64,000 nucleotides of DNA. Origin: Cyanophora paradoxa CCMP329 (lineage: Eukaryota > Plantae > Glaucophyta). Positions within the stretch are counted from its first letter, which is position 1. Every line of letters begins with the position of its first letter. This document shows positions 1 through 56,500 of the stretch, piece after piece. The notes under the pieces were generated by a model. That model made no database searches and was not told the DNA's origin. It saw only the letters and a program-made list of their open reading frames with translations. Both the position numbers and the translations under genes were made by a program. Location: assembly GCA_004431415.1 (NCBI GenBank), contig QPMI01000095.1:310001-374000 (forward strand). Direction: 5' to 3'.

Positions 1-14
1 CAGCGGGGCCATAG

Positions 15-3000
15 CTATAGGCGTGCGTGCTCCTGCGGCCACGGGCCCCGCGGGGTCGGGGCCTCGCGAGGGGCAGAGAGGGGCGGGCGGGGCGCGCTCA
101 CGGGACGGAGGCGAGGGCCGGCTCGGGCTGGCGAGCCTCGGAGGGCGCGGCGCGGGGCGCGGCTCGGGGCTGGCGAAGCGCCGGTCGGGCCCCAGGGGCC
201 CCTCGGCCCCAGCACCGCCTCGAGCCGCTCCTGCCCCCGCCCCGCCTCGCACCGCCGCGCAAGGCCGCGGGCCGCGGGGCGACGCACCAGGGCCCGCTCC
301 GAGACAGGCGCGAGGCGCAGCGCGGAGGCGGAGGCGGCGGCGGCGGCGCGGGCGGCGGGGGCGGCGGCTGCGAGGCGGGGCAGGGAGGCGGCGTGGGCGT
401 GGAGGAGGAGGGCGGCGGGGAAGGCGCCGAGCCCCGCGGCGGCGAGGGCGCGCTCGGCGGGGCGCGGCTCGTCGGGGAGGTGGAGCGGGGCGGGGGCGGG
501 GCGGGGCCGGGGCCGGGGCGCGGGCGGGGCGGCCCTCGCGGCGGCGGCGGCTGCGAGGAGGCGGGGGACGTCCTCCGGGGCCGCGGCGAAGCGCAGCGCC
601 ACCTGGGCGGCCGTCAGCGCGCCCCGCCCGCGGCGCCGCGCCCCGCGACCGGCGCGCCTCGGCGGGGAGGGCGCTCGCCGCGGTGGCGAGGGCCGCAGCG
701 AGGCGCGGGGCGGCCGGGGGCGGGAAGGGCGGGCGGGCGCCGGGGCCGGTGGCGCCGGGGCGGGGCGAGGAGGAGGATGCGGTCGTAGCGGGCGGCGAGG
801 GGCGCGAGGTTCGCCAGCATTGCCCCGCCAGCTCCTCCGCCGCCCCCGGCCCCGCCTCCGCCCCCGCCCCGCAACCTGCCCCGCCCTCCCCTTCAGCCCT
901 GGGGGGAGGGCGAGGAGGGGCGGGCGGACGAGGGCCGGGGCAGGAGGACGACGGCGGCGGCGGGGAGAGGGCAAGGCGGCGGGGGCCTCGAGGGGCCGCA
1001 CCGCCACCGCCAGCCCCGCCCCGCGCAGCGCCCCAGCAGCCCCTGCCGCCCCCGCCATCAGCCCAGGCGCGGGGGCGCGGAGCATGGCGGCGGCTCACGG
1101 GCTCCTCCCGCTCGAGGGCGGCGCTGGCGAGGAGGGGCGGGGCAGGGGGCGGGGCCGGGGCGGCCGGGGCGAAGGCGGCGGGCCGAGGCGGGCGACGCCT
1201 CGGGCGCGAGCAGCGCCCCCGCCTCCAGCGGCCCCGCCGCCCCGCCCCGCCAGCCACGCCGGCCGCCGCCCTGCGGCCCAGGCGGCGTCAGCGGGCCTGC
1301 GAGGGAGGGAGGGGGAGGGGCGGGCCGGAGGGCGGCCCAGAGGCGCTCGGCGGCGCCGAGGGCGGCGTCGGCCTCGGCGTCGGCGGCGGGGCGGGGCGGC
1401 GGGGCGGGGCGGGAGGCGGACGGAGTGGAGGCGGCCGCGCGCCTCGAGCGCCGCCGCCGCCTCGGGCAGCGCTGCGGGGCCGCCCCCGTACCAGACGACC
1501 AGCCCGTACCTGCCGGCCCCGCCCTCGCCCCACAGCACCGCGCTCCCTCCGGGGCGGCGCACCGCTCCCAGGGACCTCGGGGCGGCGGCGGCGGCCTCGG
1601 TGGCGACGTGGACGGGGGCCGGGGGAGGGCGGCCCAGGCGGGGCCACGGGCACGGCGGCGAGGGCGAGGGCCGCCACGGGGGCGGGGCCCTCGGGCCGCA
1701 GCACGGCGGCGGGGCCGCAGGGCCGAGGGCGGCGCAGGCGGGGCCGATGTACGGGGGCCCGGGACGAGCACGAGGCGGGGCGGGGCGGGGCGGGGCCCGC
1801 GTGGAGGGCCCCGCGCCCCCGGCGGCGGCGGCGGCGGCGGCGTGGGCGGCGAGGGTGGCGCGGAGGGGGCGGCGCGGGGCTCTTCGGGCTCGGGGCCGGC
1901 GGGGAGGGCGGCGTCGCGCCAGAGGGGCGGGAGGAAGCGGGCGGCGAGGGGCCCGAGGCGCCCGTCGTCGAGCACCGCCGCGAGGTACGCCCGCAGCACC
2001 GCCCCGCCCCCGCAGCGCGCGTGCTCCGCCGCCCCCGCAGCACCTCCACCCGCAGCAGCGCCTCGTACCGCCCCGCCGCCTCCCGCGCCGCACCGCTCCC
2101 CGCCGCCGCCCGCGCGCCTCCGCCGCCGCCCGCGCCTTCGCCTCCTCGAGCGCCCTGCGCGGCCGCCTGAGGCGCGCGGGAGCCGGGCGAGCGGGGCGGG
2201 GCGGGGCGGACGGGGCGGGGATGTCGAGGAGGCGGGGTGCGCAGACGGCGGGCCCGGCAGTGGGGGCAGCAGGTGGCGGACGGCGGCGAGGGGCGCCGCC
2301 GCCAGCAGCTCCGCCGTCGCCACGCACGCCGCCCCCGCCCCTGCGCCCCCTCAGCCCGCCGCCGCGCGGCCCGGCGCCGGGCGGGCGCGCACGGGACGGG
2401 GGACGGAGATGACGGGGCGGAGGGGGCCGGCGAAGGGACCCACGGCGGGGTCGCCGGGGCGCTCCCCGCGACGACCTGGCGGCAGGGTCGGGGGCGTGGG
2501 CGCGGGGCGGGGAGGCGTGCAGACGTCGAGGGCGAGGGCGCGGAGGAGGCCGGCGAGCGCCGCCCCGTCGGGGGCCGGCAGGGGCGCCAGCGCGGCGAGC
2601 CGCAGGGCCGGCATCGCCCGCCGCGCCCCGCCACCTGCGCCGCGTGAGGGCCGGGGCCGGGGGCGCGGGGACGGGGCGGGGCGGGGGCCTCTTGGAGGAG
2701 GGCGGCCTCGGCGGAGAGGGGCGCGGGGGCGGGGGCGCCCGGGGCGGGGCGCCAGTCGAGGGCGAGGAAGGTGACGCCGTGCGTGGCGAGGCGGCTCGCG
2801 AGGCTCCCCCGGAAGGCCCCCGCGGGGGCCACCGCGATCCCCGCCCCCGCCAGCGCGTCGTAGACCTGCCCCGTGTGCATCCCCGCCCGCACCCCCGCAC
2901 CCTCGTCCGCCCCGCGCCCCCGCCGGCAGCAGCCGCTTGAGCGCCGCATGCGCCTCCCCGGCCGCCGCCTCGTCGCGGGCCAGCCAAAGCACCTGCGCGG

Positions 3001-5998
3001 CGTCAGGCCCCTGCCTTGGGCGCGGGGGCGGGTGGTGGAGGCCTTGGCGGCGGGTCGAAGCGGAGGGCGGAGAGGGCGAGGAGGGCGAGGGCGCGCAGGC
3101 CCCCGAGCGGCAGCGTCGCCGGCAGCACCAGCAGCGCGTCCCGCCCCGCGCCCCCTCCGCCCCTCCGCCTCGCACCGCAGCGGCACCACTCCCTCCGGCA
3201 CCGCCAGCACCCCCGCCGCCCCCGCCGGCCCGCGGCCGGCCCCGCGCCGGCGTCGGCATCTCGGGGCGGGCGGGGCGGGGCGGGTGCCGGGGGTGGCGGG
3301 GCGGGGCCAGGGCCGGCGGCGCGGCGGGCACGCATGAACTCGTCGAGCGTCGCCTGCGCGCCGTCACTCGCGCGGGAGTCGGGGGCGCGGAGCTCGCTCC
3401 ACCGCACCGGCGCCGCCTCCCGCGGGGGCGACGCCGCTGCCGGCGGCGCGGGCGGCTGGGCGGCGGGTGCGCGGGGCGGAGGGAGAAGGGGCGGGGCGGG
3501 AGAGGGTGCGGGGGCGGGGCGGGGGCGGGGCGGGACCGTGTGCGGGCGCTGGGCTCGAGGTCTCTGCGGATGGGCGACGGCGGCCGCTGCCGGCCGGCCT
3601 GCAAGCTCCCCGGCGGGGACGGCCGCGGGGAAGCCGCGGCGGGGGCCGGGGAGGTGGCCGCCGTGGGGGCGGGGAGGGGTGCGCGGGGGCCAGGGCGGGA
3701 CCGGGGAGGCCTCGTCGCTGTCCGGGGGCGGCTGCTCCTGGAGAGAGGGCCGCGGGGAGGGCGCCGGCGTCCCCGCCTCCCCCTCCGCCTCCGCCTCCTC
3801 CTCCTCCGCGAGCTGCCGCCCGCTGGCACGCGCGGGGCGGGGCGGGGGCGCGGGGAAGGCGGCGGGCCTTGGCGAGAAGGGCGGGGAGGGGCAGCTCCAG
3901 GAGACCACCGGGGTCCTCGGGGCGGGCCCCTGCGCCTGGGCGGGGCGGGGCGGGGCACGCCGCCGCCATCGCCAGGAAGCGGTACACGAGCCCTGGCCCC
4001 CGCCGGCGCCGCCTCGGCCCGGGCGGTGCGGAGGGGGCGCGGGCGGGGGGCACCGGCGCAGGAGTCGTCGGCGCCCTCGGCGGGGCGGACGCGGAGGGCG
4101 GCGGCGATGCGGCGCGCCTCCTCCGCCCCCGCCGCCTCGGCCTCGAGCAGCTCGAGCGGCTCCTCCAGGCCCGCCCCGCCCCGCCCGCCCCCGCCCCGCC
4201 TCCCGCTGAGGCGCCCCCGCCGCCCCGCGGGCGGGCGGCGGGGCCCTCGGGGCGGCGGGGCGGGCCGCGGCCCGGCGAGGAGGGTCCAGGAGGAGCGCCC
4301 TGCTGGCGCCGGGGCGCGGCTCGGCCTCCTCCTCCACGCTCCGCGCCCGCGCCCGCCGCCCTGCGCCGCCCTCGGGCCCCGCGCGGGCCGGGGAGGGGCG
4401 CGGGGAGCGCACGGGCCGCCGGGGCGGGTAGGGCGCCCGCGAGGGCCACCGCCTCGCGCGGCGCCAGCGGCGGAGCGGCGGGGCGCCGCTCCGGCGGCGC
4501 CGACTCCGCCAGCGCCGCCCGCGCCGCCGCCACGGGCGGGAGGAGGGCGAGGGGCGGCAGCCGCAGCTCCAGCGGCGCGAGCCGCGCCGCGGGACCTGGC
4601 CCGGCGGCCGGCGCGGCGGGGGCGGCGGGGCGGGGGCAGGGCGGCCTGCGGGGCGGTGAGAGACGGAGACGGGGCGGGGCGCGGGGGCGGAGACGGAGGG
4701 GAAGGGCCCGTCGGGGGCGGCGAGGAGCTCCTCGATGGCGGCGGGGCCCGGCGCCCCGGGGCCCAGCAGCGCCTGCCCCGGCCCCGCCACCGGCGACGCC
4801 GCCCGCGCCCATTCCGGCGCCCCCGCCGCCGCGGCCCCGGCTTCGGGCGGGGAGAGGCGGCTCCAGCACGGGGCAGTCAAGCAAGGGCACGGTGGTCGCC
4901 TCGCCGCACGGGGCGGCTGCGGCAGTCGTGAGCCTACGGAGGCACGTGGCGGGGCGCACGCACGCGGCGCGGAGTCGGGGGAGGGGCGACGGGGCAAGGC
5001 GCGGGCCGGGGCAGCGGCGCGGCGTCCTGGAGGAGGGGTGCGGGGGGCCCCACCCGGCCTAGCCCTCGAGCAGCGCCTCCCGGGCCGGCGGCAGTGTGAG
5101 GGCGGGGCGGGGCGGCGAGGCGGCGGCGGCGAGGGCGCGAGGGAGCGGGTCGGTGACGGGCCGGAGCTGCCAGCCTGGTGCCGCTTGCGGCAGCTCCAGC
5201 TCGCCCCCGCCGGCCCTCGCGGCTCCCCGCCCGCCGCCCTCGTCGGCAGCACCCTCGGGCTCCGCGGCAGGGAGCGCGGGGCGAGCCGGCGGGACGAGCG
5301 GGGCGGCCTCCTCGCGCAGGCGCGCCGCGGCGCCCGGCGTGACGTCTTCCTCCAGCGCGAGGACCGGCGCCGGCGGGGCGCGCGCGGCGCCCCCGAGCGA
5401 CGGGCGGCGCGGCGGCGGCGGCGGGCGCGGCAAGAGCGGCTCAAGATCAAAGCGGCGCGGGCCGCGCGGCGAGGCGAGCAGTGCTGCGGGGCGGCGCGCG
5501 TCGGTGGGGCGCGGGTGCGCGGCGAGAAGGACGCGCGGCACCGTCGAGTGCGTCGTCGGCCTCTGAGAAGGCCGGCGGCTTGCCGCTTGGCGCGACGCTC
5601 TGTGCATCGCCGGACAGGAACCATTCTGGCGGCGCCGGCGCTGGCAGCTCTGCAAGCGCAGCCGCGGCGGTCCATCCGGAGGCCGCGCTCCGCGGGCCTG
5701 CTACGTGCGTGCTTGCGGTTACACCGATTACGATGTCGACGAGAGAGGAGGCGAGAGCGCGTGCGGGCTTACCGGAAGACGAGGCGCGTAGCGATGCGAG
5801 CAGGGAGCCCAGCGACGCGAGGCGCTGCGCTCCATCATCAATGAAGAAGCAGAGAGCGCACTCAAATCGAGGCCGCACCCCGATCGGGCGCTCGGCGAAT
5901 GGTTCGGCGGGAAGAATCGCCGCCGCGTGCGCCGCGGCCTTCTGAAGCGCAGCGGAAGCCTCACCGAACGGGTCCGTGCCAAGGTGGCGTGTCCGCAT
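15..5998 (-). CDS. SHOC1: SHOC1/ZIP2-like meiotic crossover protein (multi-exon; 3' end approximate)
   Basis: The N-terminus MRTRHLGTDPF resembles the recalled plant SHOC1 start MRTRFL(N/A)(I/T)DYF. C-terminal exons (LHLPDEPRPAERALAAAGLGAFPAALLL...SLPRLAAA...PVSERALVR) fit the XPF-like/HhH tail. The ~6 kb gene size fits. Confidence 0.6.
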
Positions 5999-6172
5999 GG
6001 CGACAGCGCGGCGCCGAGTTCAGGAATCACAGCACGCGTATGCGCATGCGTACGCGAATTCACGCGAAAAAAAAGAAGGCGCAGCGAAGGCGCGCTCTTC
6101 CGAAAGAACGGGGCCTCCGGAGCAAGCCATAAACAGGGTACCGTGGGCGCGCGCCCGAGGCCGCAGCTCAGC

Positions 6173-16765: not shown

Positions 16766-19347
16766 ATGCCAGAGACGCCGAACAAGAAGCCCAAGATGTC
16801 GGCCCTGCCTTCCAGCCTTCCCGAGTGGCGCCAACTGGCCGATCACGCTGCTGAGATCAAGCAGACCCATCTCCGCGACCTGCTCAAGTGCGTACAGTCT
16901 GCGCCCGTTCCCGGGGTCCAGGACTGCCGTACACGCTTCGAATGACTGGACTGCGCGGCCGTGGGGTCCCAGCCGCGCCCTGTCATCGAGCCGAACCTTC
17001 TCCGTCGCAGGGATGTCGCCCGAACGACCAGCATGAACGCTGAATTCGACGGCATCTACCTCGACTACTCGCGTCAATGCGCGACAAAGAAGACGGTCGA
17101 CCTGCTCTTCAAGCTCGCGGACGCCACCGGTGCGCGATTCGTGCGCACGTCATGGCGCCCCTCCGCGCGCCGATCGTCTACGCGCAGGCTTGAAGAAGAA
17201 GATCGCCGATCTCGCGAGCGGGCAGAAGATCAACACGACGGAGAACCGCGCCGTCCTGCACATCGCCCTGCGCGCGCAGGCGGGAGAGGTGCGCGACAGC
17301 AGCGCGACGGGGCGGGGTTCGCGCCCGATGCGGGGCGCGCGGGGCGGCAGTCGATCGTGGTGGATGGGAAGGACGTGGTTCCGGAGGTGCACAAGGTGCT
17401 GGCCAAGATCGAGGACTTCGCCAACCGCGTGCGCGGCGGCCAGTTCGTCGGCTGCACGGGGAAGTGCGCCGCCCGCTCGCCGGCCCCCGCGGGGCGCGCC
17501 TTACGGTTCGGGCAGGCCGCTGACGGACGTCGTGTCGATCGGGATCGGGGGGAGCTACCTCGGCACCGAGTTCGTCTACGAGGCCCTCCGCCACGTCCGC
17601 GCCCCGCCCCCGCCCCCGCGCCCTCGCCCCGCGAGCCGCCCACGGCGCGGGAGGCAGGACGGGGAGGCGAACGCGGCGGCGGCGGGGCGGCGGCTGCGCT
17701 TCCTCGCGAACGTGGACCCCGTGGACGTGGCGCGGGCCACCGAGGGGCTCGACCCCGAGACCACCCTCGTCATCGTCTGCAGCAAGGCCCGCCCCCCCGT
17801 CCCCCGCGACGGCCGCCCCGCCCGGCTGAGCGGCCGGCAGACGTTCACGACGGCGGAGACGATGCTGAACGCGCGGACGCTGCGGAAGTGGCTGCAGGAC
17901 GGCCTCAAGGGCCACGCGGACGCGGTGAAGAAGCACATGGTGGCGGTGAGCACGGCGCTCGACCTCGTCGACAAGTTCGGCATCGACACCGCCAACGCCT
18001 TCGGCTTCTGGGACTGGGTCGGCGGCCGCTACTCCGTCTGCTCCGCCGGTGAGCCCTCTCTCGCGCGAAACCCTCCGCCGCCCCGGCTGAGCGGGCCCGC
18101 CGGCAGTCGGGGCGCTCCCGCTCTCGCTGCAGTACGGGCCGGGGGTCTTCCGTCGGTTCCTGCAGGGGGCGCACGCGGTGGACCGCCACTTCCTCGCTGC
18201 CGACTTCAGGGGGAACCTGCCCGTGCTGCTCGGCCTCTTCGGCGTGTGGAACGCGACCTTCCTCGGGCACGCCTCGCGCGCCCTCCTCCCTTACGCCCAG
18301 GCCCTCCTCCGCTTCCCCGCGCACATCCAGCAGGCCGGCCCGCGCCCGCACGCGCCGCGCGCGGGGCGGGGGCCGGGGGCGAGGGGGCGGGGCAGGTGGA
18401 CATGGAGTCGAACGGGAAGCGTGTGGCGCTGGACGGGACGGCGCTGGACTTCGAGGCCGGGGAGGTGAACTTCGGGGAGCCCGGGACCAACGGGCAGCAC
18501 AGCTTCTACCAGCTCATGCACCAGGGCCGCGTCCTCCCCGCCGACTTCATCGGCGCCGCCGTCAGCCAGCGCCCAGCCTCCCTCCCCGGCGAGCCCGTCT
18601 CCAACCACGACGAGCTCATGTCCAACTTCTTCGCCCAGGCCCGCCCCGCCCCGCCCCGCCCCGCCCCGCCCCGCCCCCCCGCGCGTGCAGGCGGCAGAGG
18701 CGCCAGCGCAGCCGGACGCGCTGGCGCTGGGGAAGACGGCGGAGGAGCTGCGCGCCGAGGGCTGCCCCGAGCCCCTCATCCCCCACCGCGTCCGCCCCGG
18801 CCCCGCGCCCCGCCGGCCGCCGCCCCGCCGACGGCGTGCAGAGTTTCCCGGGGAACCGGCCCTCGAACATGCTGCTGCTCCCGCGCCTCGACGCGTACAC
18901 GACGGGCCAGGTGCGCCGGCCCCGCCGCGGGGCACGCGGGGGCGGGGCGAGCGGGGGCGGGACAGCTGCTGGCGCTCTTCGAGCACCGGACGGTGGTCGA
19001 GGGCTTCGTCTGGGGCATCAACTCCTTCGACCAGTACGGCGTCGAGCTCGGCAAGGTCCTCGCCACGCAGGTCCCTGCCCCGCCCCGCCCCGCCCCGCCC
19101 CGCCCGAGGCCGCCCGAGGCCCCCGGCGCCCACGCGGCGGCCCGCGGCAGGTGCGCAAGGAGCTCCAGCAGGCGCGCGCCGCCGGCGCGGGGGCCGCCCT
19201 CTCGCGCTCGTACAACCCCTCCACCGACGCCCTCCTCCTCCGGTGCGCCCCGCCCCGCCGCCCCGCCCCCCCCCACGCCCGCTCCCCGGCCCCGGCCGAC
19301 GTCGACTCGAACACAGCTACCTCAAGCACTCGGGCGCGAAGCTCTGA
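16766..19347 (+). CDS. GPI: Glucose-6-phosphate isomerase (cytosolic PGIC type) with C-terminal AKL
   Basis: [33 protein letters not shown]|[54 protein letters not shown]. Ends YLKHSGAKL*. Confidence 0.97.
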
Positions 19348-19719
19348 TCACGAGCCGCCCCGTGCCCAGCCGGCCCTGCCCCCGGCCCTCGAGGGCGCGC
19401 TTGTGAGCGTTCGAACAGCGCGCGAGCGATGCAGTCTGATGTTGCGACCTGGTGGCGGGCACCTGGGCCAGGGGAGGAGAAGAGCAATAACAACTGCAGC
19501 AGCCACACCAAAAGAGCGGCAGTTGACGCTGAAGAGGATACAGCTAAGGTCTCGCATTGGGAAGAAGAGGCAGCCTGTTCGGACTGGCGGGGCGGAGATG
19601 GGCGTGGGAGGCCCCGCGGCTGAGGCCGCGGGCTGCAGGCGCGGGGGTCCGAGGTGAGTTGGGGGGCGAGAGGAGAGCGGCGGGGCGGGGTTGGGGCGGG
19701 CGGGGCGGTGGGCGGGGGC

Positions 19720-20649: not shown

Positions 20650-20968
20650 CGCTGTGCCAGATGCTAGCTAGGGCGCGCCTGTGCCCTTCACCGGTCTATA
20701 CTGAGCTTCGCGAGGCCGCTGCGCGTGTCCGGATGCTGCCTGTTGCTCGGAAAACCTTTCCCGCTCAAACCCAGCGGAATAGCGTATCCCGGACGCAAAA
20801 AAAGAGCGCCGATCCGCGCTGGATCAGAGAGGAACGCTAGGCGAGCGCCATTTAGCCTCTGGCGTGCACGATCTCAAACAACCCCGATCTCAGCCTCTGC
20901 GTTCTACTCGGGTCGTGTTTTCCTCGCTAGCTCAGCTCAACTCAGCAGCTCAGCTCAGCTTCTGCTTG

Positions 20969-23811
20969 GGCAGCTTCCAATATGAGCTACACGACGCTCT
21001 CCGCTGGAACGACTGGAGGGTGATCCGAGTGAAGGTTGCGAGTTGTGCCGAATCGAGCTCCGGCAGCAGGCCCTCTTCGGTCTAAGCGGTCTTGTACAGA
21101 AGTGCGTCATCGTGCTGCACTCCAGCTCCGGCTGAAGAGCTACTAAACTGCCCTAGCTAAGCAGGCGCGGCTGCCGCGGGGCGGGCAGGACCCATGCTCG
21201 ACAAGCAGCTGCACGTCCTCGTCTCCTCGTCGGCGGACCTGCTGGCGCAGCACTTCGACGAGGATGCGCCTAGCACCGCCGCGGCTTCGCCCGGGGGGCG
21301 GCAGGCGCCGGCGGCGGGCGGCGGCGCCGGGGCCAACCGCAAGGCGGGCATGGCGCGCAAGAAGTCGATCGCCGAGTCGATGCTGCAGGGCGTGGCGGCG
21401 TTCCGGCTCGAGGTGCGCGGCCGCGGGCACGGGGGCGGGCCTCGCGGGGGGCCGACGGGCTCGGGCGCAGGTCCCCGTGGAGAGCATCGCGACGGTGACG
21501 ACGCCGTGGGCCCCAGAGAAGTGCGCCGGGCCCTGCGGGGCGCCCGGCGCCCCTCACCGACTGCGCAGGCCGCTGCGGTACGCCGAGCGCAAGGGGACGC
21601 GGGTGCGGAGCCCCCCCCCCCCCCTTTGCGGAGGAGGCGCGGGGCGTGCCGGGTAGCGAGGGGGCGGGCAGGTGCTCTTCACGGAGGACTGCCAGGCGGT
21701 GCTGCAGGCGGGGACGGCGTCGATCCCAGCGGCGGAGGCGCCGGCGGGGCTGGAGGAGGCGTTCGAGGCGCCGGACCACACGCAGGTCCTCCGCGTCTCC
21801 GTCGTCGACGAGGCCGGCCTCTTCCTCCTCACCCTCCGGAGCCCCAAGCTCTTCGCCAAGGCCTTCTTCTACTGGGCCTGCGAGTTCCTCGCGGGGGCGG
21901 GGGCGGGGCGGGGCGACGAGGCGGGGGGCGCCGAGGGCGAGTCCTTCGACGCCATCCTCCACTGGCTCCTCGTGAGGGAGACGGAGCGGCAGCTCGGGCA
22001 GGCCGAGGCCGACCGCATCCTCGGCGGCGCCTCCTCCGACGCCTCCGCCGCGCCGCGCCCCGGCGCCCCCGGTGAGGAGGGCGCCGACGAGGAGGGGCCC
22101 CCGCTCGCCCGCGGCATCGCCGGCGCCGGCGCCAAGGGCGGCAAGGTCAGCATGCACGGGCATCCCCCCGGCAGCGCCGGCGCTCCTCGGAGCGGGCGCT
22201 CACTCGCCGCGCAGGAGAGCGCGCACGCGGTGGAGACGCGGATGCTGAGGACGGCGGGGGCCGCGATCTCGGCGGTGCCCGGCCTCGCGCTCGCCTCCCG
22301 TGATCCCCGCCCGACCTCTCGCCCGCGGCAGGCGCGCTCGCTGCACGCCGAGCCGATGACGCAGTGGCGCTTCCGCGGGTCGAACCAGAACTGCATGTGC
22401 CACTCGCGCAGCGACGGGCCCTTCAACCCGCCCATCTTCCGCGGCCAAGTCACCATCCGGGTGCGCCCCCGCCGACCGGCCTGCGCCCGGGCCTGGCCGC
22501 GCCGGCGGGTGACGCTGCGCAGGCGCCGGCGCACATCACGGCGAACTACATCCTCGAGCCGTCGGCGCGGGCGCGGTGGGACCACCTGTGCCAGCGGCTG
22601 GCGGTCGTGCACGAGATCGACCGGCACCACCGCGTCGAGCGCCTCTCCGAGCTCACCGTCCTCGAGGGCCACGCCCCCAACGACGTCCGCCACCCGCCCC
22701 GCCCCGCCCCGCCGGCCGCCCCCGCGCCCCGGCCTCTGATGACGCGAGGCGGGCGGCAGTACTTCATGGTGACCGGCTGTAAGCTCTTCCCGCAGGAGAA
22801 GACGGTGAGCTCGCGTGCCCTCGCCGCCGCGCCGTGAGCCGACTTGGGGCGCAGTACGTGATAGCTTCGCGGTCGGTCGGGAAGCACCCCGACAACGAGG
22901 CGCCGATCCCCGGGTTCACGCGGGCGGAGGCGACCCTGATGGCCTTTCTCGTCCTCGCCGTCACCCCGGCCACCTGCCAGGTGCCCCTCAGCGCCGAAAC
23001 TCGTCTTCCCCCTAGTCCCCCGCGCGCTCGCGCTGCTAACCAGCCCGCCCCGCGCCTCTTCTCGCCAGGTCACCGCCTACTTCCAGGGTGCGCCCCGCGC
23101 GCGCGGGGGCGCGGGAGGGGCAGGGGGCGGCGGGGGCTGATGGTGCGGGGGTGGGCAGTGGCGTACAAGGGCGTGCTGCCGAAGGTGGTGGAGCACGCGC
23201 TGACGGACGGCCGCCTGACGTGCCTCGTCGACCTCCGCGACGTCCTCCGCTCCGAGATCATCTCCAAGTCGTACCCCCGCACGGGGCCCTTCACGAAGCA
23301 CATGCAGCGGGACGGGGAGGCGCAGAACGCCAAGCCCGTGACCCTCCGCGCCATCCTTAAGCTCGCCCGCGTCCTCTCCCGCTGGAAGGCCGTCGGCAAG
23401 GAGGGCGAGCACGGCCACCCCCACGCTCCGCCCCACGCCCCCTCCCCGGGCCCCGCCCCCGGCCCCGCCCCGGGCCCAGGCGCCCCGCAGGCCCTGCCCC
23501 CGGTCCGGCCTCCCCCAAGCGGCAGCAACCTCGCCGCCGCGGGCGGCGGAGGGGCGATGGCGCCCACCGGCGGCCCCCGGCGCGCCGTCTCGCGGGCGGC
23601 AGTCTCGCCGGGTCTGGCGGCGCCCCTCGGGCCGCGGTCCGTGAGCACGCCGAACCTCTCGGAGACGCCGGCCCCGGGGTTCGGGCGACCGCCCCGGGCC
23701 CCCCACGGGACCCTCGGGACGACCTCGGGCCCCATCAACGCGCTCACCAAGCTGCCCCCCGCCACAGGCGCCACCCGCTCCCGCTATTTCGCCCCTCCCC
23801 AGCGCATGTGA
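20969..23811 (+). CDS. Bro-N-like domain + START domain protein, paralogue A (start codon uncertain, may lie further upstream)
   Basis: Bro-N-like: PLRYAERKGTR|VLFTEDCQAVL...VSVVDEAGLFLLTLRSPKLFAKAFFYWACEFL. START-like: QWRF...FRGQVTIR|APA...RARWD..., VIASRSVGKHP...PGFTRAE, AYKGVLP. Confidence 0.75.
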
Positions 23812-24038
23812 GCCGTTTCTTCCCTCTCCCTCGCCACTGCGCCCCTTTAGTCTCTCGTTCCGAGCTCGCATGCACGCCTAGAACCTCTGCTTCGCGATCG
23901 CCAGCTGCAATTCCGTATACGTGCACCCAGCAGCATCCATCTTCAATGAAGCCTTTCAGATGTGCGGGCGCGCCGCAGTGCCGCAGTGCCGATCCCTGCA
24001 CGCTTTCGTTGTGCCATCAAACTTGCAGAGAGGGTGAG

Positions 24039-26977
24039 CTAGCGGGCGGAGAGAGGGGCGGGAGGGGCGGGGCCCGGGAGGGCGCCGAAGCCCGGGCTGC
24101 GGGGCCCGCCGGAGTGGGAGCGGTCGGTGAGGGGCCCGCCGGGGAGGAGGAGCGAGGGGCGACGGAAGGAGGGGGCGAAGAGGGAGGGGCGCGGGGGCGG
24201 GGCGCGGGGCGGGGGCTTGGCCTTGGGCTCGTGGCCTCGGAGGCGCCTGAGGAGCTCCTCCTCGTGGCGGCGGCGGGCGATGCGGCGCCAGAAGAGGACG
24301 ATGCCGATCATGCGGGTGACCATCCAGAAGTAGCGGTAGACCTGCTCCCGGCTCTGCATCGCCACCCGCTTCCGCTGCTCCCCCTCGTTGCGCGGCTCCT
24401 TCTTCTGCTCCCAGTAGCCCGGCCACACCCCCGGGTCGTAGTGCTCGTTCTGCCGCCCCGTCGGCCCCGGGCGCGGGGACGGCGGGGGCGGGGGGCGGGG
24501 GGCGGACGGAGGAGGCGGCCTCGGCGACGGCGAGGCGGCGGAGGGAGGCGATGCAGAGGGGCCGGACCTGGCGGAAGAAGTCCTCCACGCCCCGCGAGAG
24601 GATCCCCTTGTAGTCCACCTGCGCCACGTACACCACCTCGCACGACTCTGCGCACCCGTCGCACCCCACCCCGCCCCGCCAAGCCCGCCCCAGGGGGCCC
24701 CCGCACCGAAGCCGGGCCCCGGGCGGATACAGAAGCCCGAGGTGAGGAGCTCGCCGCGGATGTACTCCTTCAGGGGCGACACCCGGTCGTGCGTCACCGA
24801 GAAGCTCCCCACCAGCAGCTCCCCCTGCGGCCCCCGCCCCGCCCGTGAGGCCCCCGCCCCCCGCCCGCGCCGCGCCCCGCCGCACCGTGTGCGCGTCCTT
24901 CCGCCACGACGAGAGGAGGCAGAAGTCCCGGCACTTGTACCCTGCAGGGGCCGTCGGCACGCGCCGCTCGTACGCTCCGGGGGCGGGGGCAGGGCGGGGC
25001 GGACCGGGGTACATGAGGTGCTCGGCGAGGTAGGTGATGCGGTGGCGCTCGTCGAGCTGCGCCACTGTCGAGGCGAGGTCCACGAGCGGGTCCCACGCCT
25101 TGCGCCCTTCCGTCTCCCACAGCAGCCGGAAGAGCGTCGAGGGCGGGGCCTTGATGTGCCCCACCCCACGCACGATGTCCGGGGTGTTGGGGGCGGCGGC
25201 GGGCCCTGAGGGGCGGCGGCAGTAGACGCGGACGCCGTCCTTGAAAGTGACGAGCTTCCAGGCGGGGTCCCCCTCGTTGGCGACCTCCTCGGCGAGGCGC
25301 GCCAGCATCACGTCCGCCTGCTTCATCAGCTTGAACACGTTGTTCGCCCCGAGGCTCGACTGCGCGTGCGCCGCCGCCCCGCCCCGCTCCGCGCTGCGCT
25401 CCTGGTCGCGGGCGAGGAGCCACTGGATGATCTTGTCGCCCTCCTTGGCGTCGGCGGCGCTCGAGTAGGGGACGGCGTGCGCGGCCTCGCGCTCGAGGGC
25501 CGCCTCGGGGTCCCGGTGGCCGGCGGCGAGGGCGGCCGCCCAGCGGTGGAAGTCCCGCGCCGCCTTCTTCTGCGACCGCATGCACGCCGCGAAGACCCCC
25601 GCCTCGCCCACCACCGCCGCCTCCTGCCGCCCCCATCAGCGCCCCCGCCCCGGGGCGGGGCGGGGCGGGGGGGCGGGCCTCGAGGGCGCCGGTGTCGGGG
25701 TGCTGGACGAGGTGGGTGGAGAGGCCGGGGAGGGAGCCCTCGGCGGCGCGCAGGTCCACCCCGAGCACCCGCCCCACGTCCCCCGCCAGCAGCAGCACCG
25801 GCGCCGCCCCCGACGAGAGCCCCGCCCGCTTCTCCTTCACCACCACGTACCGCACCTCGCGCCCCGCGAACCTGCGCCCCGCGGCCCCCCCTCAGACGCC
25901 GAGACCCCGACCCAGGCCGAAGAAGAAGCTCGCACCGCGCAGACTGCACAGGCCGCGCCGCCGCCGCCGCCGCCGCCACGCTGCCCACCGCACCGCCGCC
26001 GCCGTGTCGCTCGCTGGGGCTCCGGGGCACGCTGCCGGCCTCACGGGGCCCGCCGGAGCTCTGGAGGAGGGCCCGGCGCACGGCCGCGCTCCCGGGGCGC
26101 GGCGACTGGGCGCCCGGCGGGCCAACCTCGGCCCCTCGGGGAGGGCGGCGAGCTGGGGCGCGGGGGGCCGGCGGGGCGGCGGGCGGTGGCGGGCGGGCGC
26201 CCGGCGGGGAGACCTCGCGGGAGGCCGGCCTGCCGGGGCCTTCCCCGCCCCGGCTGCTCAGCGCCCTCGGCGAGGACTCGGGCGCCCCCCGCGAGGAGCG
26301 CGCCGAGTTCGGCGGCCGCCCCGCGCGACGCGGCGAGCCCGCGGAGACCGTCCGCGGGGGCGGGTGGGGGTACGGGTGGAGCGGCGAGGGGGAGAAGGGG
26401 GAGTCCATGTCGGCGGGGGAGGCCCCGCGGCGCCAGATCTGGACCTCACCCGCGGTAGCTGGCCGCCGCGGCGCGCTGCTCGGCGGGCCGTGCATCTGCC
26501 GCACGGGCGACGGCGAGCGGCCGCGCTGGAAGACGTCCCACGCCACCATCAGCGCTGCGGCCCCCCGGCAGCGCCCGGCGCGAATCAGCACGGCGCCCCA
26601 CTCGGACACAGCGGCGCGCCGCTGCCGCCGACGACTTCTGACGCAAGACATAAGCAGCGCGCACGAAGAGACGTGACGTAAGCGTCTGCCAGCGCCTGGT
26701 GGATCCGCTTGGCCTCGAACTCTTGCATCCGCTGCCCCAGGTAGTCCGCCTTTTGAGGCTGCCGGGCGCTGGAATTCATCCCCTCGCTAGGGCCCGCTGA
26801 ATGGCCCCTCGGGGTCGACGGAGTCGAGGGTAACATGGAGCGCCGAGGTGAGCCAAAACCAGGCGGGGCCAGAGGGGGGACGAGCGGCGCCGGCGGAGGG
26901 GAGCGCTGCGGCGACTCGAGCACCAGCTGGTCGAGCTCCCGCATCGCTGCGCCCGGCGCTCGCGGGCTGCCGGTCAT
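24039..26977 (-). CDS. Bro-N-like domain + START domain protein, paralogue B
   Basis: S/P/R-rich N-terminus. Bro-N-like: VRYVVV...PVLLLAGDVGRVLG...VVGEAGVFAACMRSQKKAARDFHRWAAAL. START: WKLVTFKDGVRVY, VRGVGHIKAPPSTLF, RKAWDP, RDFCLL, SFSVTH..P..YIRG, SGFCIRP, VVYVAQVDYKG. Confidence 0.82.
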
Positions 26978-28981: not shown

Positions 28982-31900
28982 CTAGGAGAGGACGACGGTG
29001 CGGGTGAGGATGGAGGGCGGTGCGAAGGAGGGGGCGTCGGAGGCGGCGGAGGGGCGGCGGGAGAGGGGCCCCGGGGCGCGGCAGGCGGCGCAGAAGTCGA
29101 AGGCGACCTCGAGCTCGCAGGTCACGGGGCGGTGGCCCGACGTCCGCACCCCGCCCACCGAGCGGTAGCGCAGCGGCACGATGCCCGGCCCCTGCTGCAC
29201 CCCCTCTGGCGCCTCCCGGAAGGCGTAGAGCACGCGGTCCGTCCAGGCGGGGGTACGCTGCAGTTCAGAAACACGTAGCACAGTCATTAAGATGAATGAT
29301 ACGAGCTGATGATGACCGCACCTGCTTGGGCCCGGTGTCGTAGAGATCGGCCTCGAGGTCGAGCTTGTAGTTGGGGGGGAAAGCGATGGGGGCCTCGTGG
29401 AAGGAGGGGAAGGCGCGGCCGGCGCGCATCTCGGCGAGCAGCTGGTCGGCCTCGAGGAGCGCGCCCAGCGAGCCCGGCCGCTCCAGCAGCGCCAGGGCCT
29501 CCGCCCGCGACACCCCCGCCAGCCGGTAGTTCAGGTCCCCCAGCCACACCACCCGCTCGAAGCGCTCCGAGGCGCCTGCGGCGACCGAGGGCGCCGCAGC
29601 GCGCCAGGCCTCCATGCCGCCGTCGGCAGGGGAGGGCGCTGAGGAGCGGGGCGGGCTCAGCAGCGGCGCCGAGGCGGTGCGGGAGGCGGCGGAGAGCGGG
29701 TGCGGCGCCGCGCTCGGCGGCGGCGTGGAGCGGGCGGCGTACAGGGGCCCCGAGGGGGCGGAGCCGAGCTGCGAGCCGGGGGAGACGGCGGGGGAGGCGG
29801 CGGGGGGTGACAGGCGCGGGCCGCTGTACGCCGGCTCCGAGGCGAGGGGCCGCAGGAAGGGCGAGGAGGAGGGGCGCGCCGGGGTGGGGAGGTCGGAGGG
29901 GCTCAGGAGGGGCGGGGCCGGGGGCGCAAAGGAGGCGGAGCGGGCCGGGGTGTAGGAGGCGGGGCGGGCGGGGGTGTAGGTGGCGGGGGCGCCGGTGAGG
30001 GAGGAGGGCGTCGAGGCGCGCGACGAGGAGGCCGAGGCCGGCGACGAGGGCGGCGCCGAGCTCGAGAGCGAGGGGGCCGGGACGAGGGCGCGCAGGAGGG
30101 CCCCCTCGGGGCCCCCGGAGGCGGCGGGGCAGGGCCGCGGGGCGAGGGAGAGGGCGGCGTTGATGCGGTGGAACATCTGCCGGCGGGGGCGCGTCAGACG
30201 GGGCGGCCCCGGTCTCGGGGGGCTAGGGCGGGCGGGCCTCGTTGCGGGGCTCCGGGGCGGGCCCCGAGGCGAGGTACGAGCAGACGAAGAGGAGGGAGGT
30301 GCAGCCGAGGGAGCAGGCGACGGCCACCGCGCCCTTGGTGCCCACGCCCCCGGGGCCCGTCGGCACCTTCGCCGTCTGCACGTTCGCCACGTGCGCCGCC
30401 AGCGGGCGCCGGGCGAAGAGCTGCGGGGGGCTGAGGGGGGCGGGGCGGGGGCGGCGGGGCGCGGGGCGCGGACGGCGATGTGGCAGGAGGGGAGGGCCTC
30501 GCGGGCGACGAGGCGGTAGCGGTCGGGCCCGAGCTCGGCGAGGAGGCGCTGCTCCCACTGCTCCGCCCCGGGGCCCGAGACCATCGCCCGCGAGATCGTC
30601 CGGTGGCACTGCTCGCTGCCCACCACCACGAGGTCCGCCTCCTGCTCGCCCCGTCCCGGCAGCAGCGCGGCGAGGCTGCCGGGGGGCGGGCGCCCCTGGA
30701 GGTTCCACGTGCAGGCGAAGAGGCGGAGGCGGCGGGTGGGGAGGAGGAAGGCGAGGTCCTCCGCCCCCTCCCCGCCCGCCCCGCAGGCCCGCGGCGTGGC
30801 CCCCGGCGTCGACGCGGCGCTCCCCGAGGCGGGGGCGGGGAAGGGGGGCGGGGCGGGGGCCGGGGGGCGGGGCCAGAGGCGGCGGCGGCGCTGGGCCTGG
30901 AGGGGCCCGGCGAGCCACTCGAGGCGCTCGCGGAGGACGTCGAAGGAGGCGCGCTTCGCCGGGCTCCGCTTCAGGCACTTCTTCATCAGGTCCCGCAGCA
31001 GGTCCGGGCACGAGGCCGGCACCTCCGGCTTCCGCCGCTCCGTCACGACCTGCCGCCCCGCTCGCCCCGCGCGCGGCCACGGGGCGGGGGGGCGGGGGCG
31101 GGCCTTGTGGGCGATGGCGAGGGGCTGCATGCCCTCCCAGGGGTGGGAGCCAGTGAGGAGGAAGCGGAGGATGCAGCCGAAGGACCAGACGTCGGCCGTC
31201 GCGCTGATCTGCGACTCCCCCGCCAGGATCTCGGGGCTGCTGTACGCGTCCCCGAAGGGCGTGAAGTCGGGCGTCCCCGAGACCCGCGTCTTGATCTCCT
31301 TGGAGATCCCGAAGTCGGCTATCTTGGGCGCGTGCTCCGCGTCCACCAGGATGTTCCGCGGGTTCTGCCCCCGCGCCTTGGCCCCGCGCGCCGCCGCTCG
31401 CGCGGGGGCGGGGTGGGGCGGGGCGCACGAGGTCCCTGTGGACGATCTGGGGCTTGCGGGCGTGCAGGTAGGCCATCCCCGAGGCGATCCCGTGCGCGAT
31501 CCGCACCACCTGCCGCCCCGCTCCAGCCCGCCCCGCCCCAGCGGCCCCCCAGCGGCGCGGGGCGCGCACCTCGGGGAGGTCGAGCGCCCCGCGCCGCTTC
31601 ACGTAGTCCGAGAGCGAGCCGTTCGCGGCCAGCTCCATGCAGAGCATGACCTCTCCCTGCGGGCCACAGCTCCAGCCCAGGAACCGCACGACATTCGAAT
31701 GCGCCAAGGTCCGTAGCATCGCCGCCTCGCGCGCCAGCATCGTTCTCTCCTCCTCAGCGTTCCGAGCAAGGCGCCCGTGCGAGCACTTGACGGCAACTGC
31801 GCGCTGCGCTCGCACGGCCGCTTCACAGCCGCTCACGGCCCAAGGGGACCGCACCGCTCTCTCCTCTGTACACACTGCGATAGATGAGCCCAAAGCCACC

Positions 31901-32205
31901 TGAGCCGATGATGTTCTTCGGGTCCAGGGCGAGCTCGCTGACGGGAATCACTGCGGTATGGAGAGTCAGCGGGGCGGGAGTCGTGTTCGCGGCAGCATGC
32001 AGCGCTTTATGGCCCCAGCGCACTAGCGCTAACGACATGAGGCCTCGCGCATGCGCCGTTATGCAGCGCAGGGGTTGGGGGGCAGTTTAACCGGCGCACT
32101 TTCCTGCTCCAGCAGCGCAGGATGAAGCAGTGGCGGCGCTGGCGGTCCTGCTGAACCGCCAATGCCCGAGCCGGCGGCGGCAGGCCCGCCGCTGCTGGAC
32201 GGCAT
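28982..32205 (-). CDS. TKL-type protein kinase fused to an inositol polyphosphate 5-phosphatase domain
   Basis: Kinase: IGSGGFG, VAVK, IVHRDL|NPRNIL, KIADFG, SPE, DVWSFG. Phosphatase in the same reading frame: CTWNLQG, GTKGAV, WLGDLNYR, DQL, FHEAPIAFPPNYK, RTPAWTDRVL, SGHRPV. Confidence 0.88.
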
Positions 32206-53536: not shown

Positions 53537-56500
53537 CTAGGCGAGAGCGGGGGCGGGGTCCTCGGGGGGAAGGTGTGGGAGAAGGAAGGCCCAGGGGACG
53601 CGCTGGTGCCAGGGGCCGCCGGCGCCGGCCCCGCCCTGGGCCCCGAGGCGGACGCCCTCGGGGAGGCCCGGGGCGGCGAGGAGGCGGGCGGCGAGGGCGC
53701 GCAGCAGGGGCGCCCCCGGCGGGGCCTGCGCCTCCGCCGCGAGCGCCGAGGCGGCGAGGAGCGCCACGGGGCTCACCACGCCGCTCACCGGCCGCCCCAG
53801 GTACCCCTCGGAGCCGCCGCGCTGCGCCGCCCCGCCGGCGAACGCCCAGCGCGCCGCGGGGCCCGCCTGCCGGCGCGTCGGCCTCGGGGGGCGGGGCGGG
53901 GGCGGGGCGGGGCGGGGCGGACGTGGCGAGGCGGAGGGCGAGCTCGAGGGGGGCGGCGGCGCGGGCGAGGTCGGCCTCGGCGAGGAGGCCCCGCGCAGCG
54001 AGCACCACCAGCAGCCGCCCCGCCGCCACCACCGCCCCCGCGCTCCGCCCCGGCCGCGAGAAGTCCGCCCCCCCGACCAGCCCCGCCGCCACGCACCTGC
54101 CCGCCCCGCTCAGGCCGGCGCGGGCGGCGGGGGCGGGGTTGGGGCGCACTCGGCGGCGGCCTCGGCGAGGCGGGCGGCGGCGGGGCCGGCGGCAACAACG
54201 GGGAGGGCGGCGTCGAGGACGGCTCCCGCCGCCTCCGCCTCGCCGGACAGGGGCGGCCCCTCCGCGGGGACGAGGCCGTCGTCGGTGACGAGGGGGCCGC
54301 GGAGGATGCCGGCGGCGGCGCGCCAGGCGCGGTCCACGAGCTCCACCGCCGCCTCCGTCGCCGCCATCGCCCCCGCCACCCCCGCCCCCGCCCCGCCCCC
54401 GCCGCCACCCGCCCCGCAAAGGCCACCGCGTAGCCAGCCGCTCGGTCCGCCGCCGCGGCGTCGTCGGGGGCGGGGCCGGGGGCCGGGGCGGGCGGCGCAG
54501 CGGAGGGCGAAGCGGAGGGCAACCTGGGCGAGGGCGGCGGGGACGAGGGGCCCGTCGTGCGCCCCGGGGCCCTCCTCGGGGGCACCCCGCCGCCCCCGGC
54601 CCCCCCGCCGCACGAGGCGAGCCACGCGCCGAGGTGCCGCCCGTGCACCTGCCGGCGCCCCCTCAACCGCCTCGCAGCGAGGCCACGGGGGGCGGGGGTG
54701 GAGGCCCGGGGGCACCTCCCAGAGTGCCTGCAGGAGGGCGTCGCGGGCCTCGCAGGGCCCCGGCCACAGGTGGAGCCGCCGCAGCAGCTCGAAGCGCCGG
54801 CACGCCCTGCACGCACCGCTTGTCGGGGGCGGGGCGGGGCGGGGCGGGGCGGGGCGGGGGCCGCACATGACGACGGAGCCCATGGAGAGGGCGTCGGGCC
54901 GCAGCTGCCGACCCGCTCCCTGAGCCGCCGCGCGGGGGGCGGCACGGGGGGCGCACCGAGGCGGGGAGGGTGAGGTCGAACTCGAAGTGCTGCGGGGGCC
55001 GGTGCCCCGCGGGGCCGGCGAAGGGGTCGCGGGGCACGGCGACGCGGCCGGTGTCGAGGGGGAAGGGGCCGGGCCCGTGGAGGGCCTCGTCGCGGGCCCC
55101 CTCCCGGAAGAGCGCCTCGAGCGCCTCCTCCATCTCCCCCTGCGCGTCCTCGTGCAGCTCCGCCAGCGCCGCCGAGGGCGGCTCCGAGCAGAGGCGCTCC
55201 GCCAGCCGCGCGAGGCGCTCGGGGGGCCCGGCGACGAGGGCGGCGAGGGCGGCGGGGCGGCGGAATGCTGCGGCCTCGAGGAGGGCCGCCGCCTCGAGGG
55301 CGTCCCCCGCGGCCCCGCCCCGCCCCACGGCGCGCGCGAGGAGGGCGGCGAGGAGGGCGGGGGCGGGCGGGGCGGCGGGGGCGCGGATCGCGGAGGCCCG
55401 CGCCGCGGGCGGCGTCGCCGAGGTCGAGGGCCGTCGCCAGGCGCCCCCACGCCGCCACGTCCACCCCCACCTCCCCCGCCTCCACCCTGCCCCCCGCACC
55501 CGCCCTCAGCCCCGTCCCGCGCGCGGCGCAGGGCGGCGGGGGGCGCGCCTGCGCAGGAGCCACTCGAGGAGGGCGGCGAGGAGAGCGGGGCGGGTGGCGA
55601 GGGCGGCGCGGGGGGCCCCGGGGGGCGGCTCCTCCTCGACGGGGCGCCCCTCGTCGTCGGCGCGCTCGAGGAGCTCGCGGTACTGCCCCCGCGCCCCGCC
55701 CAGCGCGTCCCACTCGATCGCAGCCACGGCGGCGGCGCCGAGAGCGCGGGCCGGCGCCCGGGCCGTCGCCGGGCGGACGGCGAGGCCGGCGGCGAAGGCG
55801 TCCAGCAGGCGGCCGGCGGCCGGCCCCTCCCAGCCGGCCCCCGCCCCGCCCGCCTGCTCGGGCGCCTCGAGCGGGGCGGGGGCGTCCGGTGCCTCGGGGG
55901 CCCCTCGGCGGCGAGCCCCGCGACGGAGAGGAGGGCGAGGAGGAGGGCGCGGGCGGCGCCGGCGCCGGCCGCGCGGCCCCAGGCGCGGTAGGCCTCGGCG
56001 GCGGCGGCGGAGGCGGCGTCGAGGGCGGGGCCCGGGGCGGGGCGGCGGCGCGCAGGAGGCAGGCCCCCGCGGAGAGGAGCCCGTAGACGAGCTCCTCGGG
56101 GACCTGCCGCCCGTCAGCGCGCGCGGCGGCGCGGGGCGGGAGCAGGGCGCGCCGCCGGCGGGGCTCCCGCGGGGGCGATCCAGAGGACGGTGCCTGCGGG
56201 GGCGGCGGCGGAGGCGAGGCGGACGGAGGGCCCGGGGGCCTGCGCGTCGGGCCCGAGGAGGCCCGGGGCGGTGGCCTCGGGGCTCAGGGTGAGGCGCCCC
56301 GAGCGGCGCTCGGCGAGGCTCCGCAGGCACTCCTCCGGCACGAAGACCCGCTCCTCCGCCACCCCCTCCCCTGCCCCCGTCCACTCGCCCGGGCGCCCCC
56401 CGCGGCCGGCGCGGCGCTGGCGCACCGGAGCCGTCGCAGGGGGAGAGGGCGCGGCGGGCGATGGGGACGCCGTCGAGGTCGGCGCGGATGGCGAGGTGGA

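Follow-up and report, generated by a model that had tools for sequence, protein, structure and literature searches.

Bro-N proteins of viruses and phages have been described as DNA-binding (PMC6537400, PMC12721341 and PMC9043618, each in the part available). In plant HD-Zip factors, START is linked to DNA-binding function: binding of phosphatidylcholine by START is needed for DNA binding in HD-Zip III, and START controls location and stability in HD-Zip IV (available part of PMC13590234). Furthermore, fungal APSES/SBF factors and Bqt4 have been described as host genes that took in a virus-type winged-helix domain and were duplicated (PMC4862756, in part). This fungal KilA-N/APSES group is the main known example of viral DNA-binding domains that became host regulators.

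The window analyzed here comprises 64,000 nucleotides from Cyanophora paradoxa, a freshwater glaucophyte alga, and harbors two adjacent, convergent genes, A (+) and B (-), with stop codons ending at 23811 and 24039, respectively. A preliminary description had reported these as tail-to-tail, intron-containing genes, each joining a Bro-N to a START domain. This gene arrangement was confirmed, all motifs quoted were present where they had been placed, and the gene models match the EukProt proteins P0002 (A) and P0001 (B); the accessions of the matching EukProt proteins read EP00741_Cyanophora_paradoxa. Runs X1, X3 and X4 were treated as RNA because they skip GT-AG introns of flanking genes which X12 does not skip; none of the runs is on record as RNA. 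The table of X1 joints leaves out three joints located at repeats.

The coding region of gene A extends from 21194 to 23811 (+) and encodes 656 amino acids in 11 exons (21194-21412, 21471-21520, 21569-21602, 21672-22145, 22215-22274, 22332-22460, 22523-22684, 22760-22804, 22855-22980, 23069-23087 and 23159-23811). The exon model was built from the sequence and RNA joints and is identical to P0002. Nine of its ten coding introns are backed by X1 joints; a single joint, which contains the 19-nt exon, accounts for two of these introns. Position 20969, previously taken as the start of gene A, lies in the 5' UTR (20798..21193, +), which was delimited by RNA-type contig pieces and a joint; coding begins at 21194, after a UTR intron at 21102-21164. 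The 5' region (20929-21193, +) thus combines a long 5' UTR and its intron with a short run of five-base repeats and an upstream open reading frame of 13 codons (20982-21023, +, read from the sequence). Gene A and a B9-domain ciliary gene (Pfam B9-C2, 5.3e-29) have a common divergent promoter region.

The Bro-N-derived domain of A (21513..21887, +, aa 88-173) is split by two introns, both spliced in X1. It is followed by a shared helix (21945..22001, +, aa 193-211), which according to the alignment is kept in all three paralogs found, and by the START domain (22230..23256, +, about aa 265-472, the N-terminal limit being inferred from the alignment). The preliminary description had placed the second Bro-N motif and the START N-terminus of A in one open frame; this frame stays open across two in-frame introns (69 and 57 nt), which are spliced out in the RNA contig. 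No single RNA-type contig joins Bro-N to START in gene A. One contig stops near 21890, and a second extends upstream as far as about 21907; the two ends fall in one G-rich run of an open exon, and a DNA contig crosses this run. The join in A is therefore inferred, as the two contigs end in the G-rich run and neither bridges it.

Gene B (26977-24039, -) encodes 822 amino acids from the first ATG in 8 exons (26977-26665, 26554-25936, 25871-25679, 25623-25005, 24941-24886, 24824-24707, 24647-24508 and 24449-24039), likewise modelled from the sequence and RNA joints. P0001 corresponds to the last 756 of these amino acids, the EukProt start being located 66 aa later. Four of the seven introns appear as joints in X1. 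The Bro-N-derived domain (25528..25944, -, P0001 aa 242-341) is again split by two introns, one of them a GC-AG intron (25678-25624, -) which agrees with the EukProt model and has no RNA joint listed. In the PGI gene (about 17000-19400, +), places resembling this GC-AG intron were read by eye in the translation, also with no RNA joint listed. The shared helix of B was located by alignment at 25387..25437 (-, P0001 aa 372-388) and corresponds to helix 124-146 of the structural model with a pLDDT of about 92; the START domain extends over 24508..25341 (-, about P0001 aa 404-620). An extra base at position 26131 in exon 2 occurs in one X1 contig of low depth (2.3); the other three runs have no coverage there, and the frame is open in the assembly.

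The Bro-N–START fusion in gene B was seen on single RNA-type contigs. The exon piece from 25604 to about 25004, whose product runs from the second half of Bro-N through the shared helix to the end of the first half of START, is present on single contigs in X1, X3 and X4, which come from two studies. The claim of one open frame thus stands for B, where it is a true exon (25623-25005). The X1 contig contains 258 more bases upstream, which fit the rest of the Bro-N domain and 46 bases of exon 2; the two joints inside Bro-N are absent from the RNA joint tables, and this 258-base part fits them. Hence, the fusion transcript proposed earlier is found for B and lacks a bridging contig for A.

The two genes are not just a pair. 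A third paralog, C, is the database-predicted 695-aa Cyanophora protein P0005 (g24681), which contains a START domain, aligns with A at 34% over 453 columns and is annotated in a part of the same source contig that the window does not cover; the family thus has at least three members. All three keep one order of parts: a disordered N-terminus, Bro-N, the conserved helix, START, a basic amphipathic helix and a proline-rich tail. No transmembrane stretch was found in the proteins; the helix after START in B peaks at a hydrophobicity of 1.01 over 19 residues. The Bro-N domains of A and B are each interrupted by two introns, and the alignment contains no intron position common to both genes, as would fit a duplication of old age.

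A and B are spliced, expressed host genes. GC3 is 0.97-0.99 in both the Bro-N and the START domains, a host-like codon use. All families matched by the 150 long frames of the window were host ones, e.g. kinesin, PGI, topoisomerase III beta, cap methyltransferase and kinases; none was viral. An endogenous viral element was considered and rejected in view of the host neighbors, a GC content of 69-76%, many introns and spliced RNA. The introns in Bro-N, the codon use and the neighborhood support domestication of the family, and the three paralogs of the same architecture support its duplication, as the preliminary description had proposed. Elsewhere in the window, a kinase-phosphatase fusion gene is suggested at 29268-31947 (-), with both domains in one frame at 29268-31598 (Pfam PK_Tyr_Ser-Thr, 3.6e-17; Exo_endo_phos2 phosphatase domain, 4.8e-25). 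Regions 1-6000 and 54000-58000 have 82-86% GC and long open frames in several phases, with no Pfam family.

The START domains were readily identified, as had been predicted. Pfam PF01852 matched B at 4.6e-20 and A at 7.8e-11 (aa 323-462), and the three paralogs scored 72.3, 42.2 and 50.2 bits against a cut-off of 22. The family profile matched STARD6 best (4.5e-15 over STARD6 residues 20-204), then STARD10, ACOT11 and STARD13; the START domain of B alone matched STARD10 at 9e-11. Judged by these matches, the START domains are whole, eukaryotic and of the STARD type. A basic amphipathic helix containing Trp directly follows START in all three paralogs, at a common position in the alignment (A, 23338..23394, +, aa 500-518; B, 24270..24350, -, P0001 aa 654-680, where it is basic and hydrophobic). 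In A, it has the highest hydrophobic moment of the protein and a net charge of +5 to +6. Presumably, these helices resemble calmodulin-target helices.

Identification of the upstream domain required more than a Pfam search. The pieces and P0001 scored 12.9-16.4 bits against PF02498 (best E 0.014-0.18) and missed the cut-off of 25.6 bits; whole P0002 and P0005 gave no Pfam Bro-N match. PHROG antirepressors matched the Bro-N region at E 0.013-0.59, with an atlas score of 0.79. NCBIfam gave nothing in 4 sequences, and tblastn of the B domain gave nothing in phage records. A KilA-N match was absent in Pfam at E up to 1-10. The Bro-N region, as a profile built from two sequences, was then run over 1.84 billion proteins at E<=0.001. 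It gave 29 matches, two of them self. The 27 non-self matches, with a best E of 1.1e-8, comprised 25 Bro-N proteins, P0005 and one repeat protein counted as an artefact. START was absent from all 25 Bro-N matches, and the 29 matches included no other eukaryotic homolog. In 18 of these 25 proteins, P0003 and P0006 among them, two or three Bro-N domains are arranged in tandem, which raises whole-protein scores.

The domains of B, C and A scored 27.8, 20.9 and 19.0 bits when compared with a profile built from 80 phage-type Bro-N domains. None of 1000 shuffles reached the real score for any of them, in a test that is not fully independent because the profile was seeded from the query's own matches. 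The frames of A and B were the only ones with E < 1 to this profile among 848 six-frame segments of the window. Profile-profile alignment by hhalign gave 98.4% over 90 columns, and the alignment with phage Bro-N domains is in register over the entire domain. At the 15 core positions that are >=95% invariant in the 80 rows, A and C are identical at 11 and B at 10, and the residues of the Bro-N core motif are present: the first-strand R, the D-V..L helix, E.GL, S and A..F..W. We conclude that, by sequence, the upstream domain is Bro-N-derived; the earlier assignment thus fails at the Pfam cut-off and stands by the profile matches, the shuffles and hhalign. The shared helix was also considered as a descendant of the linker helix of phage antirepressors, and this was not supported: when 71 of the 80 rows were used, 562, 435 and 17 of 1000 shuffles scored as high as the real sequences, and 79, 345 and 537 of 1000 did so with a post-hoc subset of 7 rows.

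The Bro-N domain of B, predicted with a Bro-N alignment and including the shared helix, folded at a pLDDT of 89.5; B was the one paralog folded in this way. Single-sequence AlphaFold of whole P0001 was poor (pLDDT 39). Among predicted viral structures, the B model gave 17 matches at E<=0.001, including 5 Bro/Bro-N by name, 3 repressor-domain and 7 unnamed proteins, and the matched Bro/antirepressor structures came from phages, baculoviruses and an algal virus; this fold match is partly circular because the model was built on a Bro-N alignment. Foldseek against the PDB gave no match at E<=0.001. The structural support asked for earlier was thus obtained from predicted Bro structures and not from the PDB search. 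The nearest solved neighbors of the model were baculovirus PEP-N (Z 9.0, rmsd 3.3, 94 aligned) and DdrC (Z 6.4), followed by Bqt4 (Z 5.3), Mbp1 (Z 5.1) and Dachshund (Z 5.0). By sequence, no solved structure matched the Bro-N profile (best E 0.18). A shared fold by itself shows no function.

At ten positions that are mostly K/R in phage Bro-N, a basic residue is kept at 3 in A, 4 in C and 5 in B, and none of the three paralogs retains a lysine whose position is basic in 99% of the phage rows. All three have retained the Arg of the first strand and one basic residue of the last helix. Domain A has 8 K+R, the minimum among 80 phage rows being 9. The net charge is -3 in A and +3 in both B and C, as compared to a phage mean of -1.9. 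The second helix reads DNA in folds of the Mbp1 type; this region varies between the three paralogs in both length and sequence and could not be aligned. A simple pattern scan found a bipartite NLS-like pattern only in B. Taken at sequence level, the eroded basic positions and the diverged second helix argue against a viral DNA-reading surface that was simply retained.

A Bro-N tree was calculated by a quick method from 128 rows and 111 columns, in which the paralog domains were compared with phage-type rows and known eukaryotic-virus rows were left out. The three paralog domains formed one long branch (SH-aLRT 93), in which A grouped with C (90), with branch lengths of 0.9-2.0; this grouping may possibly reflect long-branch attraction. 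The tree thus places the three on one common branch, and it supports no neighbor and names no donor group. A viral or phage origin of the domain appears likely from the sequence matches. The searches for the fusion outside the species were weak ones: word-index searches gave only self or paralog matches, and one of them missed P0002 itself; pattern scans gave 0/157 and 0/325 metagenome stretches and 0/53 viral stretches. Atlas matches for the fusion reached 0.78-0.80, which is lead level. In the literature searched, which covered few subscription papers, no description of a Bro-N–START architecture was found, in line with the preliminary description. One paper contains both terms, unrelated to each other in its available part (PMC2701414). 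By titles, this literature contained no report of such a domesticated eukaryotic Bro-N.

We propose, with about even confidence and by analogy to HD-Zip factors, that A and B act as lipid-sensing regulators in which the START ligand would control binding of Bro-N to DNA or chromatin. The history would begin with a single ancient event in which Bro-N was captured from a phage, a prophage or a large DNA virus; fusion to a host START gene and then duplication would follow. By analogy, the winged-helix fold common to Mbp1 and Bqt4 would contact DNA, and the divergence of the second helix would probably leave this contact with a low or altered specificity. The shared helix may couple or dimerize the domains, and a ligand in START could alter dimerization, location or DNA binding, as in HD-Zip III/IV.

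A serious rival holds that A and B transfer or sense lipids and that their Bro-N fold was left as a protein-docking or targeting module, with no direct gene regulation; we regard this as possible, if short of probable. It gains its weight from the divergence of the second helix and from the loss of all but 3-5 of the 10 basic positions, while the fold core is kept. In Bqt4, PEP-N, Ski and the Swi6 N-terminus, this fold has a structural or protein-binding role, the best solved match, PEP-N, being a virion envelope protein. The KilA-N domain of Bqt4, which is related, docks partners at the nuclear envelope; its DNA binding is weak, and it mediates protein contacts (PMC10375492, in part). The nearest START relatives are animal lipid-transfer proteins, and the NLS signal is weak. 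However, the B and C domains are still net basic, the first-strand Arg and the basic last-helix residue persist in all three paralogs, and described Bro-N proteins bind DNA (available parts of PMC6537400 and PMC12721341).

A role in virus defense, with the captured Bro-N as a decoy or sensor competing with viral Bro or binding viral DNA and START reading the lipid state of membranes, seems unlikely to us. Bro-N typically occurs in phages and in giant and polinton-like viruses (PMC12721341, in part) and the paralogs have diverged strongly, as their branch lengths indicate, but the neighboring genes include no viral or defense families, only three copies were found, and spliced RNA occurs in several ordinary runs. 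Very unlikely, in our judgment, is an N-terminal domain that belongs to an old eukaryotic fold of the Ski/Dachshund, XPA or KilA-N kind and was not captured from viruses, or was taken by viruses from hosts: all informative sequence matches are Bro-N of the phage-antirepressor type and none is Ski, XPA or KilA-N, and the 29 profile matches are devoid of another eukaryotic homolog, although eukaryotic proteins have the same fold and the tree resolves no donor. Finally, we give hardly any credence to an artefact, either a chance resemblance in a GC-rich genome or an annotation merging two genes. The sub-threshold Pfam scores and the missing bridging contig of A are set against one part order in three paralogs, the shuffle controls and the G-rich run in which both A contigs end and which the DNA contig spans; for B, an artefact is largely refuted by the fusion within a single exon on contigs from two studies.

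As lipid-sensing regulators, the Cyanophora proteins would combine features of several known systems. With viral and phage Bro-N proteins (PF02498; phage antirepressors, baculovirus and entomopoxvirus BRO, giant-virus and polinton-like proteins) they have the sequence core and the predicted fold in common, as well as the habit of fusing to other domains (PMC12721341, in part). Unlike these, the Cyanophora genes are nuclear and contain introns, the domain is internal behind a disordered N-terminus and below the Pfam cut-off, its second helix has diverged, and its partner is START. The fungal APSES/SBF factors and Bqt4 likewise go back to a virus-type domain, with the same fold as the B model (Z 5.1-5.3); the Cyanophora domain belongs to a different family, without KilA-N match, in a glaucophyte and not in fungi, and its proteins carry START instead of ankyrin repeats or a membrane anchor. 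STARD6, STARD10, STARD13 and ACOT11 contain the same whole START with the usual conserved motifs, whereas no Bro-N partner has been reported for them in the literature searched.

These comparisons allow a wider reading, which we advance tentatively and consider doubtful as a whole: the genes may represent an old, overlooked eukaryotic family of lipid-gated transcription regulators on a domesticated viral Bro-N. After KilA-N/APSES, this would be another viral DNA-binding domain that became a host factor, and the DNA-binding-plus-START design would have been invented independently in the plant supergroup. A spliced, triplicated glaucophyte Bro-N family provides the second case with a different domain. 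Additionally, since no solved structure matches the Bro-N profile by sequence, soluble proteins of a cultured alga are practical targets for the family. The plant HD-Zip III/IV proteins have the same order of a DNA-binding domain, which is putative in Cyanophora, a helix and START, and the model of ligand control is theirs (PMC13590234, in part). In contrast, the Cyanophora proteins match neither homeodomain nor leucine zipper, and their START is closer to animal STARD6/STARD10 than has been shown for plants, with PDF2_C reaching only E 0.22-0.28. HD-Zip III arose in streptophytes (PMC13590234, in part), so that the likeness of the Cyanophora proteins would be convergent. The fusion mirrors HD-Zip with unrelated parts and thus offers an independent test of START as a general ligand switch for DNA-binding proteins.
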